Below, piece after piece: positions 9,579 through 48,779 of a DNA stretch of 64,000 bases. The position numbers were made by a program, and so were the translations under genes. Numbering within the stretch: the first letter of the stretch is position 1; each line of letters starts with the position of its first letter. This DNA is from a phage. The stretch lies in assembly GCA_032986305.1 (NCBI GenBank), contig GCA_032986305.1_3672.1; one strand, 5' to 3'. A model generated the notes under the pieces. The model did not search any database. It had not been told where the DNA came from and worked only from the letters and a program-made list of their open reading frames with translations.

Positions 9579-9857
9579 ATGAGCTGTGAAAAATCTTTTT
9601 TCTTTATTATTTACGGTAAAGATAACTGCCCACATTGTGTAAGAGCAAAAGAATTTGCAGTCAGTAAAGGTCTGCCTTTTGTATATAAGACACTTGGCGA
9701 GGGTTACACAAAAGAAGAGCTTATTGAGAAGTGCAGTCCAATCGTACCCAGAACGTTGCCGCAGATCTTCTTAGAAAGCAATCTTGAAAGTGCCCATATA
9801 GGCGGTGCCGACGATTTCATCTCTTTTGTTAAGAATGGTTTTGGAGAGAAAAAGTGA
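9579..9857 (+). CDS. glutaredoxin/NrdH-like redoxin
   Basis: 92 aa with CPHC active-site motif in thioredoxin-fold context, adjacent to RNR genes. Confidence 0.65.
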   Translation: MSCEKSFFFIIYGKDNCPHCVRAKEFAVSKGLPFVYKTLGEGYTKEELIEKCSPIVPRTLPQIFLESNLESAHIGGADDFISFVKNGFGEKK

Positions 9858-10714
9858 AAGTTGTAAAACGGGACGGTAGAGAAGAGGTCTATAACGGAAT
9901 TAAGGTGATCAAGGCGGCAGAGTCCGCCTTACTTGAGTCTGGACATACTGAAGAAGAAGCTTACCGGATCGCCTGCGCGGTTAATGAAGTTGTTGCTAAC
10001 AATCTACCAACCGACCAGTGCACGATCTCTGTAAAAAATATCCATATCCTTGTTGAAGACGCTCTTATGGATATGGGTTTAAAATGTGCAGCCAGAGAAT
10101 ACATCCAGTATAGGCAGACAAGAGATAATAACAGAGAGGCAGGTGGAAAACTGCTTGCAGATATTAGTGGCTTCTTGGATCGCACTTGTGATGAATTTAC
10201 AAAAGAAAACGCAAATAAGCCTACCAATCATGTACACACTCATCGTGACCTGCTTGCAGGCATCCTTAGCAAACACCTTGCATCAACACAGATCCTGCCA
10301 GACCGTGTCTCAGAAGAGCACAATAAAGGCTTCATCCATGTGCATGATCTTGACTACTTGATCAGTCCGTTAACAAACTGTTGTTTGGTAAATTATCCAG
10401 ATATGTTGGAAAACGGATTCAACATTGGTAACGCCCATGTCAGTAAGCCGAAGTCAATAGGGGTTGCAACAACAATCCTTAGCCAAATTTCTAGTGCAGT
10501 AGCTAGTGCTCAGTATGGGGGTCAGACTATGAGCCATATTGATCATTATCTGGCACAGTATGCTGAGGCGACCTATGAGAAGAATCTTAAATTTTGCCAG
10601 GAACACTGGTTGCCAGATGCTGAGACTGTTGCAATGCAAATGACAGATAAAGACGTATTTGACAGCATGCAGACTTTGCTCTATCAAATCAATACGTTAA
10701 CCTCTGTCAACGGT
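9854..10714 (+). CDS. nrdD: anaerobic ribonucleotide reductase NrdD, exon 1
   Basis: ATP-cone start MKVVKRDGREE..., conserved NCCLVNY; frame stops at TAA that begins intron-like sequence. Confidence 0.8.
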
Positions 10715-10962
10715 TAACAAACTGGCCGTTTTAAAACTCTGCTAACCTCAGTATGAGGGGTCAGCTGATCGCTGGCTAACGGGGAACGCTAAGGCGAAAG
10801 CTATGCCAATCCCGTGACTAGCTTCACAAGGAGTGAGGCGGTTGTAACGACTAACCTTTTGGTGTAGGGATTATGGAAGATTCCGAAACGCAGAGGTCTG
10901 ATTAAGAATCACACGGTGTGATTTCAGGCAAGAGATAGTCTGGCCTTGTGGAAACATAAGGG
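10715..10962 (+). mobile_element. group I intron 1 in nrdD (ORF-less; boundaries approximate)
   Basis: Contains CUAACGGGGAAC...CAAUCCCGUG core resembling P3-P7 of T4 td/nrdB/sunY-type introns; flanking frames are NrdD-like. Confidence 0.55.
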
Positions 10963-11271
10963 TGGGGACCGCAAACCCCTTTTATCACATTAAGTTTAGG
11001 TCTGGACACCTCAGTATTTGGTAGAATGATTACCAAAAACTACTTGAAAGTCCACAAAATGGGTCTTGGTGAAGAATGTATCACACCTGTGTTCCCTAAA
11101 GTGCTGTTCTTCCTAGAAGAGGGTGTCAACATGAACCCTGGAGATCCTAACTATGATTTGAAACGTTTAGCTCTGGAATGCTCTGCAGAGCGGATTTATC
11201 CTGACTTTGTTTCTGTTCCACTAAATCGTAAAGTGACAGGCTCGACAGATGGCAAAGTAACGAGCATGGGT
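10963..11271 (+). CDS. nrdD: NrdD exon 2 (inferred)
   Basis: In-frame segment (…GQTPFITL…ITPVFPKVLFFLEEG…YDLKRLALECSAERIYPD…) completing an approx 710-aa NrdD when joined to exons 1 and 3. Confidence 0.55.
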
Positions 11272-12033
11272 AAACTATAACTGCTCATGTAAAATCTATC
11301 TAAACGGGGAAACTCCAGAACGGACAATCCCGTGCTAAACGTAACAGAACTCCTGACCAAGAGGAGTCCTGAAATGAGAAAACAAATTCGTGATTTTGAA
11401 GGTTATGAAATTGACGAGATGGGCAATGTTTATTGCACCCGCTACGAAAATGAAAGAATTATTCATTCGTGGGAAGAGATAAACACAGGTTACCGTCTTG
11501 TTAGGATACGCAAGAACAAAAAGACTGTTTGCCTAAGGGTTCACAGACTTGTTGCTGAAGCGTTCTTACCAAATCCAGACAATTTACCCTATGTTAAGCA
11601 CAAAGGGGACAACAGGAAAGATAACAGTGTATACAACCTTGAGTGGGGAGCTTGCCCAGACAATACGCAAGAAGGATACAACAACAACTGTTATGCTTTT
11701 TACACAAGATGCCACGGTGTGAAAGCCACCAACAAATTAACTGGTGAGGTTTTCCACTTTAAAAGTCTGAGATGTTGTGCTGATGTTTTAGGAGTGGATA
11801 GAAAAAGAATATCTGCTATCCTGAAACGTGGTGCGCCTAATAACTATGATTACGAGTTCTGTTACGAAATGCCTAACGACTAACCGTGATGAATGTAGCG
11901 GTGTAGGGTGTAAGCCGATGACACTCGAAATGGTAGACACACTAAGTGTGAAGATATAGTCTGATCTGCATGGGAACATGCAGCAGCACGTAAAGGTGCG
12001 GGGGTGGACTTGCGAACCACCCTGAACATAATG
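11272..12033 (+). mobile_element. group I intron 2 in nrdD carrying HNH endonuclease ORF
   Basis: 5' part AAUCUAUCUAAACGGGG...CAAUCCCGUGCUAAA and 3' part GAUAUAGUCUGA...GCAUGG...CAUGCAG...AUAAUG strongly resemble T4 td-type group IA2 intron core. Confidence 0.65.
11374..11883 (+). CDS. intron-encoded HNH homing endonuclease
   Basis: HNH_3-type motifs GYRLVRIRK...VHRLVAEAF...HK.G...DN...NLEW; SD AAGAGGAG before ATG. Confidence 0.8.
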   Translation: MRKQIRDFEGYEIDEMGNVYCTRYENERIIHSWEEINTGYRLVRIRKNKKTVCLRVHRLVAEAFLPNPDNLPYVKHKGDNRKDNSVYNLEWGACPDNTQEGYNNNCYAFYTRCHGVKATNKLTGEVFHFKSLRCCADVLGVDRKRISAILKRGAPNNYDYEFCYEMPND

Positions 12034-12996
12034 TGTAGAAGTTTCTTATCGAAATATAGCGACCCTGTAACAGGCGAGGAGAAATACCTTGGCAGATTTA
12101 ACTTAGGCGTTGTTAGCCTTAACCTGCCAATGATTGCGGCAAAAGCCAAGACGGAAGGTGTTGATTTCTTTGCAGTTCTTGACGAATACTTGGATCTTGC
12201 ATACGAGGCTCACCTTGTAAGGGTTAATCGTCTAAAAGGAACAAAGGCAGGGCAGAACCCCATCATGTGGTGTGAAGGCGCTCTTGCTCGCCTGGATCCT
12301 GAAGAGAGTGTTGATAAACTCTTCTATGACGGGTACGCTTCCATCAGTATTGGGTATATTGGTGTGTATGAAACCTGTCAGATTTTGGGTAGAGAGGGTG
12401 ACAAGGCTTTAGCTCTTGGAATCCTTCAGCACATGAGAGATGCTTGTGAGCGATACAAGAAGGAAAGTAGACTAGCGTTTAGCTTGTACGGCACTCCTTC
12501 TGAGAGTCTATGCTATAAAGCTGCAACCTGTCTGGATCGTGAATATCCGGAAGTGTTGAAGCACGAGCATGAATATCTCACCAACAGTTTCCATCAGCCA
12601 GTATGGATAAATAGCTCTCCTTTTGATAAGTGGGAGTATGAGGAAGGTTTTGCTATGATCTCCTCTGGTGGCAACATCGGATACGTAGAAACACCTAACC
12701 TGAAAAACAACCTGGATGCTTTAGAGGCTCTTGTTGACTTCGGGTATAAACATATTATGTACTTCGGTATAAACCAGCCTGTTGACCAATGCTTCAAGTG
12801 CGGTTTCCAGGGAGAATTTAAAGCCTCTCCAAGAGGTTTTATATGCCCTTGTTGTGGAAACCATGAGGAGGGAACGATCAGTGTAATTAGACGTGTGTCT
12901 GGATACCTTTCCAGTCCTAACTCCCGTCCTTACAATAAAGGTAAGCAAGCGGAAGTTATAGAACGGGTTAAGCACTATGGAAGTTGTAGTTGCTGA
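12034..12996 (+). CDS. nrdD: NrdD exon 3 (glycyl radical domain)
   Basis: C-terminal zinc site CFKCG...CPCCG and glycyl-radical motif RRVSGYL. Confidence 0.8.
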   Translation, partial: CRSFLSKYSDPVTGEEKYLGRFNLGVVSLNLPMIAAKAKTEGVDFFAVLDEYLDLAYEAHLVRVNRLKGTKAGQNPIMWCEGALARLDPEESVDKLFYDGYASISIGYIGVYETCQILGREGDKALALGILQHMRDACERYKKESRLAFSLYGTPSESLCYKAATCLDREYPEVLKHEHEYLTNSFHQPVWINSSPFDKWEYEEGFAMISSGGNIGYVETPNLKNNLDALEALVDFGYKHIMYFGINQPVDQCFKCGFQGEFKASPRGFICPCCGNHEEGTISVIRRVSGYLSSPNSRPYNKGKQAEVIERVKHYGSCSC

Positions 12997-13062
12997 TACT
13001 TGACAGAAGCCACAAGGATGTGGCATACTTGGCTAATCTATGAGAACCAAGAGGGATCAAAG

Positions 13063-14019
13063 ATGCCTAGAGGAAAACAACTTACAACTGAAGAATTTAC
13101 AAAAAGAGCTAGAGAAGTACATGGCGATAAATATGACTATTCAAAAACCGTATATAAAACTGCTAAAAGTAAGGTTGTAATTGTATGCCCTGTTCATGGT
13201 GAGTTTACGCAGATCGCTGGACATCATATCCTTGACGGTAGTGGGTGTCCTAAGTGTGGTAGAGTGCCAGTAGGCAATAAGCTTAGAAACGATTCTAGTG
13301 ATATTATCAAAAAATTTGTAAAAATCCACGGTGACACCTATGATTATTCTAAGGTTGAATATGTTAACTATAAAACTCCTGTAAAAATTGTATGCCCTGA
13401 GCACGGAGTGTTCTTGCAATCCCCATCTAACCATTTGAAAGGCCAAGGGTGCCCTGAGTGTAGTAAACTCATTAGCGCAGCAAAAAGGAATAAAGGCCCT
13501 GAATTCATAGAAAGAGCCAAAGAAATCCATGGCGATAAATATGACTACTCTTTTGTAGATTATATGACTTGCGAAGATAAGGTAGAGATAATCTGCAACA
13601 CTTGTGGAAATCACTTCACCCAGACACCTTCTTGCCACCTGTCTGGTCGTGGATGCCCTAAATGTGCCAAAAACGGTTTCTTATCTCACAACTATGGGAA
13701 GCTTTACCTCATGGTTGATAACTTAGAAGCGCCAACACTTATGAAGATTGGTGTGAGCGTCAATGTAGAAGCGAGGAAGGGAAGGATATTAAGAGCATCC
13801 AAGAAGGCTGGTGCAGGTATTTATGATCTCCACATAGTAAAAACATGGGGCGGATCGACTGAAAACATGCTGAGTGTAGAAAAATCTGTGCATGAAGCCT
13901 TCAATAAGTATAAAATAAACTTCTCTAAAGTATTTAGTGGAAGCACTGAATTCTTTCACTACAGACCTGAAGTGTTTAGCATAGTGGAAGCAGTATACAA
14001 AGAGATCTGTGGTAAATGA
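13063..14019 (+). CDS. free-standing homing-endonuclease-like protein (Zn-ribbon repeats plus T5orf172/GIY-YIG-like C-terminal domain)
   Basis: Three repeats of HGDKYDYS...CP.HG.F......H..G.GCP.C, C-terminal KLYLMVD...MKIGVS....R motif. Confidence 0.55.
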   Translation: MPRGKQLTTEEFTKRAREVHGDKYDYSKTVYKTAKSKVVIVCPVHGEFTQIAGHHILDGSGCPKCGRVPVGNKLRNDSSDIIKKFVKIHGDTYDYSKVEYVNYKTPVKIVCPEHGVFLQSPSNHLKGQGCPECSKLISAAKRNKGPEFIERAKEIHGDKYDYSFVDYMTCEDKVEIICNTCGNHFTQTPSCHLSGRGCPKCAKNGFLSHNYGKLYLMVDNLEAPTLMKIGVSVNVEARKGRILRASKKAGAGIYDLHIVKTWGGSTENMLSVEKSVHEAFNKYKINFSKVFSGSTEFFHYRPEVFSIVEAVYKEICGK

Positions 14020-14071
14020 TCGTAGAAAGATACACATGTCTTAAATATGCTATTAACTAAGGAGGTGCAGT

Positions 14072-14188
14072 ATGTCATCGGGTATCTATAAAATCTGCAA
14101 GTGCGGTTGTCATTGTAATCTTCGTTGGTGCAAGGCACTGGACGATTTTATTTGGCATTGCCCTAAATGTGATGCGGAGTATCTATGA
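14072..14188 (+). CDS. small zinc-ribbon protein (38 aa)
   Basis: SD AAGGAGGTG before ATG; CKCGCHC...CPKC; stop overlaps nrdG start (ATGA). Confidence 0.4.
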   Translation: MSSGIYKICKCGCHCNLRWCKALDDFIWHCPKCDAEYL

Positions 14189-14658
14189 ATATTGCCGGAT
14201 ACACAGAAATATCTTACACCGAAGGGCCAGGTATTAGAACTGCCTTATGGGTATCTGGGTGCCCACACGCTTGCCCTGGTTGCTTTAATCAGGCATTTTG
14301 GTCAAAAGATAAGGGGAGAGAGTTTACTGAAGAAGACTTGCAAAAAATCTTGTCAGATTTAGATAACCCGTCTGTGTGCGGTATCTCTCTGCTGGGTGGA
14401 GAACCCTTAGCATACTATAATGAGCCAGATATTATTAGCCTGATGGAGAAAATTAAGGAAAAATTTGGTGACAAGAAAACTATTCTTGTATATACTGGGT
14501 TCACATTTGACCATATCTCTAGTGATGTTCTTAAACTGGCTGATATCATCATTGACGGTAAGTATGTAAAAGATTTACCAACCAAGAAACCGTTCCGAGG
14601 TAGTGATAACCAAAGAATGTTTAAAAAAGTATCAGGCGGTTGGGTTCAGGTAGACTAG
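14185..14658 (+). CDS. nrdG: anaerobic ribonucleotide reductase activating protein NrdG (radical SAM)
   Basis: Radical-SAM cluster motif CPHACPGC near N-terminus, approx 157 aa. Confidence 0.85.
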   Translation: MNIAGYTEISYTEGPGIRTALWVSGCPHACPGCFNQAFWSKDKGREFTEEDLQKILSDLDNPSVCGISLLGGEPLAYYNEPDIISLMEKIKEKFGDKKTILVYTGFTFDHISSDVLKLADIIIDGKYVKDLPTKKPFRGSDNQRMFKKVSGGWVQVD

Positions 14659-14662
14659 TTGT

Positions 14663-14691
14663 TGACAAAGCTTTGTTAAGTTGGTTATAAT
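14663..14691 (+). promoter_or_regulatory. consensus sigma70 promoter TTGACA-17-TATAAT
   Basis: Perfect -35 and -10 hexamers with 17-bp spacer. Confidence 0.55.
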
Positions 14692-14720
14692 TGTCGTAAT
14701 GAAAGCAGAGGAGGTGCCAA

Positions 14721-14834
14721 ATGGCTAAAAAAGCCTTGAAGAAGGCGTACAAGAAAGAGATTGCGCTTGAGCTTAAGAAAAAACACAAGCGTGAAAAGAA
14801 ACATCATGAGGATGAAGAGGGGGTGCAACAGTGA
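14721..14834 (+). CDS. small lysine-rich protein (37 aa)
   Basis: SD GAGGAGGTG before ATG; stop overlaps next GTG start. Confidence 0.4.
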   Translation: MAKKALKKAYKKEIALELKKKHKREKKHHEDEEGVQQ

Positions 14835-15181
14835 CACAAGAACGTATCGATTTGGCTAATAAGTTTGTAGATCTCATTTTGCCACGGTTAGTTACTCAAC
14901 ATGCAGACGCTATTTCTACTAATCTTGATGGCTTACGCCTAATGCTGAATCGCACAGATGACCCTCGTATTCGGGCTGATTTAGAAGCCTCTGCCAACAA
15001 ACTGGAAAAGTTCTTGCAAGTAGATACGCAAGAGGCCTTACACAAGATTATGGTGGAAGGTTTCTCTAAAGAATTTACCATTAAAGAGCTTAAGGAGCTG
15101 ATCCACCAAGAAGAGATGAATATCCGAGTTCAGGCTGTTGCAAGCAGCATGGAAGCGGCTATTGAAAAACTGTTGCAGTAA
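14831..15181 (+). CDS. hypothetical protein
   Basis: GTG start after GAGGGGG. Confidence 0.45.
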   Translation: MTQERIDLANKFVDLILPRLVTQHADAISTNLDGLRLMLNRTDDPRIRADLEASANKLEKFLQVDTQEALHKIMVEGFSKEFTIKELKELIHQEEMNIRVQAVASSMEAAIEKLLQ

Positions 15182-15219
15182 AAGTGCTTGGTACATCTCA
15201 ATCTGAAAGGAGTCCCAAC

Positions 15220-16008
15220 ATGGGTCGAGCTAAAGAAACAAAACGCATGCGTGATGAAGCTAGAGAGGCTCGCAAATCTGATCGCCTGCGTAAGGCTGCT
15301 GAGAAATTTGCTGACGAACGAGAGCACACCGCTCCAGCTCTCCGACCAATGAATAAGAAGCAGCAAAAGTATCTTGATTATCTAGGGTCACGTAAGATTA
15401 TTATTGTAAACGGTGTGTTTGGATCCGGTAAGACATTCATGGCATCTGCATATGCAGGTGATCTTCTGCGTAAGAACGAGATTGATAAGATCATTGTTGC
15501 ACGTCCTTATGTACAGACCGGAAAATCAAGCGGATACAAACCGGGAACGTCAATGCAGAAGCTTTGGCCTTACCTTCGTAGTATGATGGACACTATTTGT
15601 CGTCGTGTTGGCAAAGGTGCTTTTGCCGCAATGCTAGGAGACGGTCAGAACAGCCGTATCGAGATTTGTGAAGTTGAAAGCATTCGTGGTCGTAGTTTCG
15701 ATGAGCGATGCTTTGTCCTGATTGACGAGGCACAGCAAACTAACCCTGAAGAAATGTTGTCAATTATCACAAGGATCTCTGATCAGGCAACCCTTGTAAT
15801 TATGGGCGATAATAGCCAACGTGACATCCCTGGTAAATCTGGCCTTGCATGGGTGACGGATTTCTTTACTCGTCATCCAGATCCTGAGGTTGGAATGATC
15901 AGCTTTGATAGTCCAGACGATGTCGTTCGTTCCGGGTTGGGTCGTCAGATTGCACTCAATCTTATTGAGGATCGTGCAAATCATATTTGGACCCCTGTTT
16001 CCGAGTAA
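15220..16008 (+). CDS. phoH: PhoH-like ATPase
   Basis: Walker A GVFGSGKTF and typical PhoH length/organisation; SD AAAGGAG. Confidence 0.85.
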   Translation: MGRAKETKRMRDEAREARKSDRLRKAAEKFADEREHTAPALRPMNKKQQKYLDYLGSRKIIIVNGVFGSGKTFMASAYAGDLLRKNEIDKIIVARPYVQTGKSSGYKPGTSMQKLWPYLRSMMDTICRRVGKGAFAAMLGDGQNSRIEICEVESIRGRSFDERCFVLIDEAQQTNPEEMLSIITRISDQATLVIMGDNSQRDIPGKSGLAWVTDFFTRHPDPEVGMISFDSPDDVVRSGLGRQIALNLIEDRANHIWTPVSE

Positions 16009-37799: not shown

Positions 37800-37864
37800 T
37801 GTTAGTGGCGGGAAGTTTTCCCGCCTGTGTGTTTAATTATACTTATTGAGATTTACTTGTCAAC
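37800..37864 (-). promoter_or_regulatory. promoter (TTGACA-16-TATAAT) plus 5' UTR hairpin GGCGGGAA/TTCCCGCC cassette
   Basis: Minus-strand consensus hexamers at 37858-37863 and 37836-37841; palindrome 37807-37825. Confidence 0.55.
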
Positions 37865-48462: not shown

Positions 48463-48779
48463 GCTTCCTCGTCGTCTAAAGAGTTGAAGATTTCACCGAA
48501 GTATTCTAAGACTTCTAGCTCCCGTGTGGTGCAGAAAACACAGTCACCGTTGTCATCCTCGATAACGGCCTCTTTACCCAGCACATCTACTTCAAGTTTA
48601 TCGTTCAACAGGACAGCCCCTGTGTAAACTTTGTCGGCTGTGCAGTCCCGAAAAGCAGAGTCTTTCTCCAGATAGTCTGGCTTAACCTTGGCTTTAATTC
48701 GTTGGTATTGTTTGGTCATTGCTGTGGTCCCCTTTCGTTTTGATAGGGCCATTATATTAGGCCCCATCACTGTTGTCAA
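48459..48779 (-). CDS. hypothetical protein (tandem paralog of 48783..49037)
   Basis: Shared motifs DCT...Y and DDNGDCVFCT / DDEGDSVWCT. Confidence 0.4.
   Translation of the reverse strand: MTTVMGPNIMALSKRKGTTAMTKQYQRIKAKVKPDYLEKDSAFRDCTADKVYTGAVLLNDKLEVDVLGKEAVIEDDNGDCVFCTTRELEVLEYFGEIFNSLDDEEA

Follow-up and report, generated by a model that had tools for sequence, protein, structure and literature searches.

Two conserved micro-protein genes near nrdG in a Vequintavirus genome: a cysteine-rich gene with signs of mobility and a lysine-rich gene paired with a 116-residue protein

We analysed a window of 64,000 nt of phage DNA in which two very short open reading frames (ORFs) of 38 and 37 codons lie on either side of nrdG, and we consider it very likely that both are real, selected protein-coding genes, organised as a first-pass annotation of this DNA had described them. 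From comparison with related genomes, the cysteine-rich ORF upstream of nrdG is seen to behave as a self-contained mobile micro-gene that moves as an ORF-precise cassette, and the lysine-rich ORF downstream of nrdG is by its synteny a companion of the following 116-aa gene, not of nrdG. To us the most interesting points are the extreme constraint on the cysteine-rich gene, which exceeds that on its enzyme neighbours, the presence of seven invariant cysteines within 38 residues, and the exchange of the gene between a myophage and a podophage.

The locus and its signals

The region 13000-16000 of the window gave matches in 121 phage records, all of them Vequintavirus (rV5-like coliphages), with Escherichia phage phiWec189 as the top record (98.4% identity, 100% coverage). 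Judged by these matches the window is Vequintavirus DNA from an rV5-like coliphage. In the local gene order nrdD is followed by a free-standing endonuclease gene, the 38-aa ORF and nrdG; next come a promoter, the 37-aa ORF, the 116-aa gene and phoH. The features of interest are as follows.

14059..14067, + strand: Shine-Dalgarno sequence AAGGAGGTG of the cysteine-rich ORF, 4 nt 5' of the ATG (direct reading)
14072..14188, + strand: cysteine-rich micro-protein gene, 38 aa, Cys7, zinc-ribbon-like, phrog_20137 (ORF, profile and selection)
14122..14153, + strand: hairpin TCGTTGGTGCAAGGCACTGGACGA followed by TTTTATTT within the cysteine-rich ORF (terminator-like match; 'terminator' in Murica)
14185..14658, + strand: nrdG, class III RNR activase (radical SAM) (Pfam Fer4_12 9.4e-43, Radical_SAM 7.6e-10; phrog_626)
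14662..14691, + strand: sigma-70 promoter TTGACA-18-TATAAT, counterpart of rV5 P118 (12/12 consensus match)
14708..14716, + strand: Shine-Dalgarno sequence GAGGAGGTG of the lysine-rich ORF, 4 nt 5' of the ATG and kept in relatives (direct reading)
14721..14834, + strand: basic micro-protein gene, 37 aa, pI 9.8, phrog_7670, equal to rV5 ORF118 (ORF and profile)
14831..15181, + strand: gene of a 116-aa all-helical protein, phrog_7650 (E 2.5e-57)

The product of the ORF at 14072-14188 (+) is MSSGIYKICKCGCHCNLRWCKALDDFIWHCPKCDAEYL (38 aa) and that of the ORF at 14721-14834 (+) is MAKKALKKAYKKEIALELKKKHKREKKHHEDEEGVQQ (37 aa). The positions, the strong Shine-Dalgarno sequences and the ATGA and GTGA overlaps that the first-pass annotation gave for both micro-ORFs were all confirmed from the sequence. 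The stop codon TGA of the cysteine-rich ORF (14186-14188) overlaps the nrdG ATG at 14185 (ATGA, 14185-14188), and the TGA of the lysine-rich ORF (14832-14834) overlaps the GTG of the 116-aa gene at 14831 (GTGA, 14831-14834). Stop/start junctions of the type ATGA, GTGA or TAATG, or an 8-nt overlap, were found in all lineages, the cysteine-rich ORF in rV5 being the sole exception. The arrangement suggests that each micro-ORF may be coupled in translation to the gene after it, as the first cistron of the pair.

Conservation and selection

Conservation of the reading frames in related phages had been proposed as a check, and at every related locus examined both frames were indeed intact and preceded by a Shine-Dalgarno sequence, which for the cysteine-rich ORF was of AGGAGG type and at equal spacing in all homologous loci. 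A six-frame search detected the cysteine-rich ORF in 130 records, in 121 of them at nearly full length. The dN/dS ratios of this ORF (Nei-Gojobori) were 0.046 against rV5, 0.047 against the podophage vB_EcoP_ACG-C91 and 0.057 against contig L014, and overall they ranged from 0.03 to 0.06 with a pS of 0.48-0.80, that is, with synonymous sites near-saturated. The enzyme neighbours gave 0.09 (nrdG) and 0.079 (nrdD) in an equal comparison, and the shifted and antisense control frames of the cysteine-rich ORF gave values of 0.5-3 or contained stops. On the divergent metagenomic contig L008 the cysteine-rich core is 83% identical, compared to 52% for NrdG, 49% for PhoH and 33% for the 116-aa protein.

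Insertions and deletions in the cysteine-rich ORF keep the frame, giving forms of 36, 38, 41 and 53-54 aa as well as one sequence (P0011) with a two-codon insertion. In one metagenome contig (L020) a fusion removes the second half of the ribbon, which may mean that the gene is dispensable or that the contig is a chimeric assembly. As for the lysine-rich ORF, the dN/dS of the whole ORF against L014 was moderately low (0.24), with other frames higher or containing stops, and in the region of its N-terminal motif, described below, pN/pS is 0.2-0.5, with saturation of the synonymous sites. A literature search for Ribo-seq, MS or RNA-seq data returned none on any Vequintavirus small ORF.

Annotation in related genomes

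Both ORFs had been described as unannotated, which is true of some records only; neither gene is new as an entity. Many relatives already carry both as CDSs for hypothetical proteins, and both products have full-length matches in PHROGs (phrog_20137 and phrog_7670). In Bas59 (EduardKellenberger) they are the hypothetical proteins bas59_0164 and bas59_0162 and in CM1 the hypothetical proteins CM1_00109 and CM1_00111; of these, QXV77858.1 (bas59_0164) and QEG04578.1 (CM1_00109) are 92-100% identical to the cysteine-rich protein and are likewise encoded between nrdD and nrdG. The region of the promoter and the lysine-rich ORF recurs in 120 records with 90-99% identity, and two hypothetical proteins are listed there in most of those that are annotated. 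Murica has the lysine-rich ORF annotated along with its RBS (Murica106), and in the record of the type phage rV5 the gene is ORF118 (ABI79183.1), which differs by one residue, overlaps the next gene in the same way and has the corresponding promoter as the 5' feature 'Sigma70-type promoter P118'.

With both genes listed as hypothetical proteins by GenBank and PHROGs already, and the rV5 promoter published, the two ORFs carry little weight as a discovery. The practical value lies in the annotation. The nearest record, phiWec189, lacks annotation of both ORFs; rV5 ORF114 is a wrong, overlapping frame across the cysteine-rich ORF; Murica has a regulatory feature, a 'terminator' (951-974 of its locus), and no CDS over the cysteine-rich frame; and in the record of the Seunavirus EspYZU08 the basic protein is wrongly called an RNR alpha subunit.

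The cysteine-rich protein

The cysteine-rich protein matched phrog_20137 with an E of 4.6e-30, residues 1-38 aligning to positions 1-38 of the 38-position profile. In an exhaustive HMMER search against 1.84 billion representatives no similarity was detected outside the protein's own family: apart from forms of 38, 41 and 53-54 aa, the matches were a single fusion variant and two repeat proteins (P0012 and P0014), which we rejected as spurious, being internally repetitive and lacking the cysteine pattern. The IMG/VR search yielded one related locus only. All seven cysteines are invariant. The first knuckle of the window's protein is CxC and that of the 41-54-aa forms CxxC, whereas the second, CPxC, is invariant. 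The position between the third and fourth cysteines (H14 in the window) varies between H, R, S, E and K, hence the histidine is presumably not a ligand.

The AF2 model of the protein (mean pLDDT 65) is a three-stranded sheet with strands at residues 16-20, 25-30 and 35-37 and the CPxC knuckle placed between the second and the third. The predicted antiparallel arrangement of the sheet and the CPxC knuckle recall the zinc-ribbon fold as known from the Rpb9/TFIIS C-terminal ribbon, the Nudix N-terminal ribbon (3cng), ZifS (8yoz) and the NrdR N-terminal ribbon. The top-ranked Foldseek neighbours of the model were all zinc ribbons, with a TM of 0.5-0.66 over 24-30 residues, and all at E >= 2, thus not significant. 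Pfam gave no family at E <= 1, zinc-ribbon and rubredoxin families included, and a PDB sequence profile search gave nothing significant, the nearest entry being an archaeal small CPxCG zinc-finger protein (8q5b, E 0.34). The naming of the product as a zinc-ribbon protein is hence plausible but unproven: the invariant cysteines number seven and not four, three of them being extra, and the confidence of the model and the Pfam and fold searches are as given above. Nearly every residue of the core is under constraint, and it seems possible that the product is a compact micro-protein of zinc-ribbon-like type that binds metal.

The haloarchaeal CPxCG zinc-finger micro-proteins (Brz, PMC2253796; Haloferax, PMC10117724) are likewise stand-alone proteins below 60 aa with cysteine knuckles, CPxC among them. 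The phage protein has no detectable homology to them, has seven invariant cysteines instead of four, and differs in its first knuckle, which reads CxC/CxxC-G-C-x-C.

Two further ideas on the origin or role of the protein were rejected. A rubredoxin-like electron donor to NrdG does not fit, as there is no match to a rubredoxin or any other Pfam family; besides, rubredoxin potentials are far too positive for reducing a radical-SAM cluster. Nor is the ORF a zinc-finger remnant of the adjacent homing endonuclease: the gene is present in genomes lacking the endonuclease, and the endonuclease matches DUF723/DUF4379, neither of which is matched by the cysteine-rich protein.

Genomic context of the cysteine-rich gene

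The two ORFs had been introduced as flanking nrdG, which is correct as to position but misleading, since neither is specifically tied to that gene. Within Vequintavirus the cysteine-rich gene occurs next to two different NrdG alleles, which share only 52% identity. The genomes of rV5 type have two ORFs between the cysteine-rich gene and nrdG, and the cysteine-rich stop codon overlaps nothing. The cysteine-rich gene is absent from the sister lineages EF1-1 and Seunavirus EspYZU08, in which the stop codon of nrdD overlaps the start of nrdG. Related NrdG proteins were found in 2,145 phage records, and about 121 of these have the cysteine-rich gene.

A copy of the gene was also found in ACG-C91, a podophage of the Autographiviridae that has no RNR genes, nrdD/nrdG included. 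This copy has 36 codons, is 77% identical, matches phrog_20137 with an E of 4.9e-23, and lies, unannotated and with an ATGA overlap, between the genes of a nucleotide kinase and a DNA ligase. The kinase-ligase slot is polymorphic in Vectrevirus, where three different small ORFs are swapped from start to stop between identical flanks: an unrelated 38-aa four-cysteine zinc ribbon in K1E, a 57-aa cysteine-free ORF (phrog_15259) in Mt1B1_P10 and the seven-cysteine gene in ACG-C91. The K1E ribbon (AQY55013.1) resembles the ACG-C91 copy in size, cysteine-knuckle class, slot and ATGA overlap, and is thus a positional analogue that has been exactly replaced by the seven-cysteine gene in ACG-C91. It differs in being of unrelated sequence (CPNCG...CHSCD, four cysteines) and of another PHROG family, and it gives sub-threshold matches to generic Zn_ribbon Pfam families, which the cysteine-rich protein of the window does not. 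Because of the ORF-precise swaps in this slot, together with the presence of a copy where nrdD/nrdG are missing, the cysteine-rich gene is on sequence grounds a self-contained mobile micro-gene.

The label 'ribonucleotide reductase' that PHROG gives to phrog_20137 appears to be inherited from the adjacent gene and should not be read as a function; similarly, the best PHROG match of the K1E ribbon bears the label 'DNA ligase'.

As to how the gene might act, we can only be tentative. It could be a self-contained accessory gene expressed with the nucleotide/DNA-metabolism module, the layout being nrdD-X-nrdG for Vequintavirus and nucleotide kinase-X-DNA ligase for ACG-C91, and it has passed between unrelated coliphages as an ORF-precise cassette. 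The protein may bind zinc and a partner independent of the phage's own NrdG, probably one that comes from the host or else is generally conserved; we hold this mode of action possible, at somewhat less than even chances. Further, we speculate that the seven-cysteine protein might be a metallo-microprotein, horizontally mobile and ultra-constrained, with a conserved factor of E. coli as its target, be it a step of host nucleotide/DNA metabolism or a defence system, that it might be one of several interchangeable cassettes which coliphages exchange with ORF precision beside their DNA-metabolism genes, and that the three surplus cysteines might make up a further metal site or else a binuclear cluster, but this more specific proposal is a long shot. 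The gene is a reasonable candidate for experiments, and it is present in phages of the BASEL collection (e.g. Bas59), which are convenient for genetics.

The lysine-rich ORF and the 116-aa protein

The lysine-rich protein matched phrog_7670 with an E of 2e-20 (residues 1-37 on positions 1-37 of the 46-position profile), and other fold and profile searches with it, Pfam included, gave nothing significant. We traced its homologues by synteny with the homologues of the 116-aa protein along with a DNA census. Directly 5' of 116-aa homologues with 26-33% identity, an ORF of 41-49 aa overlapping or abutting the start of the partner was found in L008, Proteus phage Mydo, the Klebsiella Mydoviruses, Erwinia phage Hena1 and Cronobacter phage EspYZU08, and over the full set of homologues of the 116-aa gene (26-66% identity) a small basic ORF was always located directly 5'. 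At the N-terminus these ORFs have M-[AS]-K-[KR]-x-L-[KR]-K-A-Y-x-K-E-[LI]-A-[LM]-x-L-[KR] in common, and the charged tail behind it varies. The motif is kept in Vequintavirus, Seunavirus, Mydovirus, Henunavirus and the unclassified metagenomic contig L008. The protein is basic (pI 9.8-10.6). The members from Mydovirus, Seunavirus and Henunavirus, with Mydo gp133 and Hena1 gp045 as phrog_7670 relatives, are 46-49 aa long, have other C-terminal tails, follow a glutaredoxin gene or nrdG, and lack the promoter seen in the window.

Mydo and Hena1 have no nrdD/nrdG, and the pair of lysine-rich and 116-aa genes there lies after glutaredoxin and before endolysin and phoH. Since the pair persists in these genomes, the lysine-rich ORF is, as far as gene order tells, part of a unit with the 116-aa gene and not with nrdG. 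The 116-aa protein is predicted by AF2 to consist of four helices (pLDDT 83), and fold and sequence profile searches gave no significant relatives of it. The 37-aa protein is thus basic, its first 19 residues forming a conserved motif and its charged tail evolving freely, and in the Vequintavirinae lineages examined it would always be made with the 116-aa four-helix protein. From the synteny we infer, tentatively and with less confidence than for the existence of the gene, that the two proteins work together. The acidic tail codons of the lysine-rich ORF double as the Shine-Dalgarno sequence of the 116-aa gene, and because these codons supply the signal of the partner, some of the constraint on the ORF is at the nucleotide level.

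An amphipathic helix at the N-terminus of the lysine-rich protein was considered and dropped, as the hydrophobic moment was not above that of shuffled sequences. A programmed frameshift fusing the ORF with the 116-aa gene was likewise unsupported, the offset being +2 in four lineages and +1 in Hena1.

Alternative explanations

One alternative is that both ORFs are open merely by chance, in AT-rich DNA between genes. The ORFs are short, lysine-rich sequence readily stays open, and the antisense frames are open too, but the frames and their Shine-Dalgarno sequences are conserved in about 120 genomes and in several genera, and the indels preserve the frame. Both frames are well beyond chance, because they are intact with a Shine-Dalgarno sequence at all related loci and show purifying selection at the codon level, of which the control frames have none, and the comparative data effectively refute the idea. 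A more specific form of doubt is that 14072-14188 is mainly an RNA element, which would serve as intrinsic terminator or attenuator in the stretch from nrdD to nrdG, and that the open frame in it is incidental. The hairpin of about -9 to -10 kcal/mol at 14122-14153 with its TTTTATTT run would suit such an element (in the core Vequintavirus genomes the hairpin has -7 to -10 kcal/mol and is followed by the same run), and the Murica record takes it for one. Against this, the substitutions are overwhelmingly synonymous, and in the cysteine-rich frame only. Further, L005, L008 and L009 have lost the hairpin and ACG-C91 has lost the T-run, with the peptide kept in all four; the region folds no better than shuffled sequences (z = 0.19); and the Rfam search found intron matches elsewhere in the window and none within 14040-14840. 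Judged by this pattern the conserved entity is the protein, not RNA, and an element that is mainly RNA is very improbable. A weak embedded terminator may still exist in the core genus as a secondary feature, and given the hairpin and T-run, the within-genus nucleotide conservation of the ORF may partly be at the RNA level.

If the ORFs are genes, the cysteine-rich protein might be a dedicated accessory of the anaerobic RNR, for metal or Fe-S handling or as a stabiliser of NrdG/NrdD, kept at a fixed ratio to NrdG through the ATGA overlap. Its place between nrdD and nrdG, overlapping the latter, in most Vequintavirus genomes and on contigs L008, L009 and L014 speaks for such a role, as do the PHROG label, which does look taken over from the neighbouring gene, and the seven invariant cysteines, which are more than one zinc site needs. 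However, the protein has no homology to NrdD, NrdG or any other RNR component, and co-occurrence with nrdD/nrdG does not hold: the ACG-C91 copy is under purifying selection next to a DNA ligase gene in a genome lacking both, the gene is uncoupled from nrdG in the rV5-type genomes, and it is absent from Seunavirus, EF1-1 and roughly 2,000 other NrdG-bearing phage records. In addition, the NrdD/NrdG of E. coli and T4 need no such factor for activity in vitro. We regard this role as improbable and prefer a partner other than NrdG. An equally small chance is given to the lysine-rich ORF being a mere leader, which delivers ribosomes to the start of the 116-aa gene or unmasks it and encodes a functionless peptide. 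Such a leader would account for the stop/start overlap kept in all lineages, for the weak GTG start of the 116-aa gene in the window with its Shine-Dalgarno sequence inside the acidic tail codons of the small ORF, and for the free evolution of the lysine-rich C-terminal half. It would not account for the 19-residue N-terminal motif being kept across genera whose partners are 26-33% identical and in which synonymous change is saturated, nor for the maintained length and basic character of the protein. In the arrest and leader peptides SecM, TnaC and ErmCL the conservation lies next to the stop codon; here the pattern is the opposite, with residues 1-19 conserved and the C-terminal half varying in sequence and length.

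The promoter upstream of the lysine-rich ORF

With both ORFs read as protein-coding genes, the 37-aa protein would in this genome be transcribed from the sigma-70 consensus promoter. The first-pass annotation had the lysine-rich ORF follow a consensus promoter, and the 12/12 match at 14662-14691 bears this out far above chance, as three perfect consensus promoters were observed in the 64-kb window and 0.02 expected from shuffled sequences. The paper on rV5 reports 33 promoters of sigma70 type (PMC3606486). In lineage L014 the promoter is missing, and the spacer from nrdG to the ORF there is just 32 nt; by this comparison the promoter is lineage-specific.

Interruption of nrdD and neighbouring endonuclease-like genes

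When mapped against the NrdD protein of rV5, the nrdD gene of the window (9854-12996) turned out to be split in three pieces, as listed here together with the intervening elements and the endonuclease gene that follows.

Features in and after nrdD
9854-10714: nrdD piece 1, rV5 NrdD aa 1-287
10705-10961: group I intron match in the first insert (Rfam, 29 bits, below the gathering score)
10972-11271: nrdD piece 2, rV5 NrdD aa 288-387
11332-11883: 183-aa ORF inside the second insert, weak Pfam matches to HNH_3 and I-HmuI NUMOD-like
11878-11983: group I intron match in the second insert (Rfam, 35 bits, below the gathering score)
11989-12993: nrdD piece 3, rV5 NrdD aa 373-707
13000-14019: free-standing 339-aa endonuclease gene; DUF723 (two copies), DUF4379 treble-clef fingers, T5orf172/MUG113; phrog_681

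Both inserts gave group I intron matches, each of them short of the Rfam gathering score of 50. The 183-aa ORF, with its weak domain matches, probably encodes a homing endonuclease of the HNH type carried by an intron. In phiWec189, the closest relative of the window, nrdD is in one piece with no interruption. We also observed a split nrdD in the divergent contig L008 (2687-5936), where 554 aa are followed by a 264-aa intervening gene and then 147 aa; interruption of nrdD is therefore recurrent in this phage group.

The 339-aa endonuclease gene sits as an insertion between nrdD and the Cys-rich ORF, whereas the related phage Bas59 has a spacer of only 64 nt at this place. Other, different endonuclease-like genes take up this site in the phages CM1 and O157 typing phage 14 and in the divergent contig L009, which makes it an insertion hot spot.

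Alleles of nrdG and of the Cys-rich gene

Two very different nrdG alleles exist in Vequintavirus, with an overall identity of 52% and a C-terminal segment ...NPTKKPFRGSDNQRMFKKV in common (regions compared, including the Cys-rich gene: rV5, L006 2436-3475; the window, 14072-14658). In the rV5-type allele two additional ORFs (115 and 116) separate nrdG from the Cys-rich gene. The reading frame under which rV5 ORF114 is annotated overlaps the conserved one of the Cys-rich gene.

The Cys-rich gene itself has two variant alleles. In phage vB_Eco_Alma (P0002) a frameshift past codon 35 puts a 26-aa tail in place of EYL, while in P0015 (L020 652-840), seen on one metagenome contig of 1.5 kb, codons 1-20 are fused to the C-terminal portion of a protein resembling rV5 ORF116. 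Either allele may reflect natural variation, or it may be an artefact of sequencing or assembly.

Vectrevirus podophages have a slot that separates the nucleotide kinase gene from the DNA ligase gene. Three small ORFs unrelated to each other occur there (L004 2998-3108, L021 799-915 and L022 ~800-973), swapped exactly from start to stop with identical flanks: one encodes the 7-Cys ribbon, another a CPxCG ribbon with 4 Cys, and the third a Cys-free protein of 57 aa. The sequence at the 3' junction, ATGAATAT, is also that of the nrdG start in Vequintavirus.

Database records and further promoters

The record of the Cronobacter phage EspYZU08 names the small basic protein (L019 1975-2115) 'ribonucleotide reductase of class Ia alpha subunit' and leaves its 141-aa partner gene downstream entirely unannotated. 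Further, 18-19 unannotated 'Campylobacter phage' GenBank records (MG0656xx) share 94-100% identity with E. coli rV5-like phages in this region; their stated host is C. jejuni, an assignment that appears doubtful.

Two more perfect TTGACA-N16-17-TATAAT promoters were observed in the window, both on the minus strand.

Further perfect consensus promoter matches
37836-37863 (-): TTGACA-N16-17-TATAAT
48751-48779 (-): TTGACA-N16-17-TATAAT
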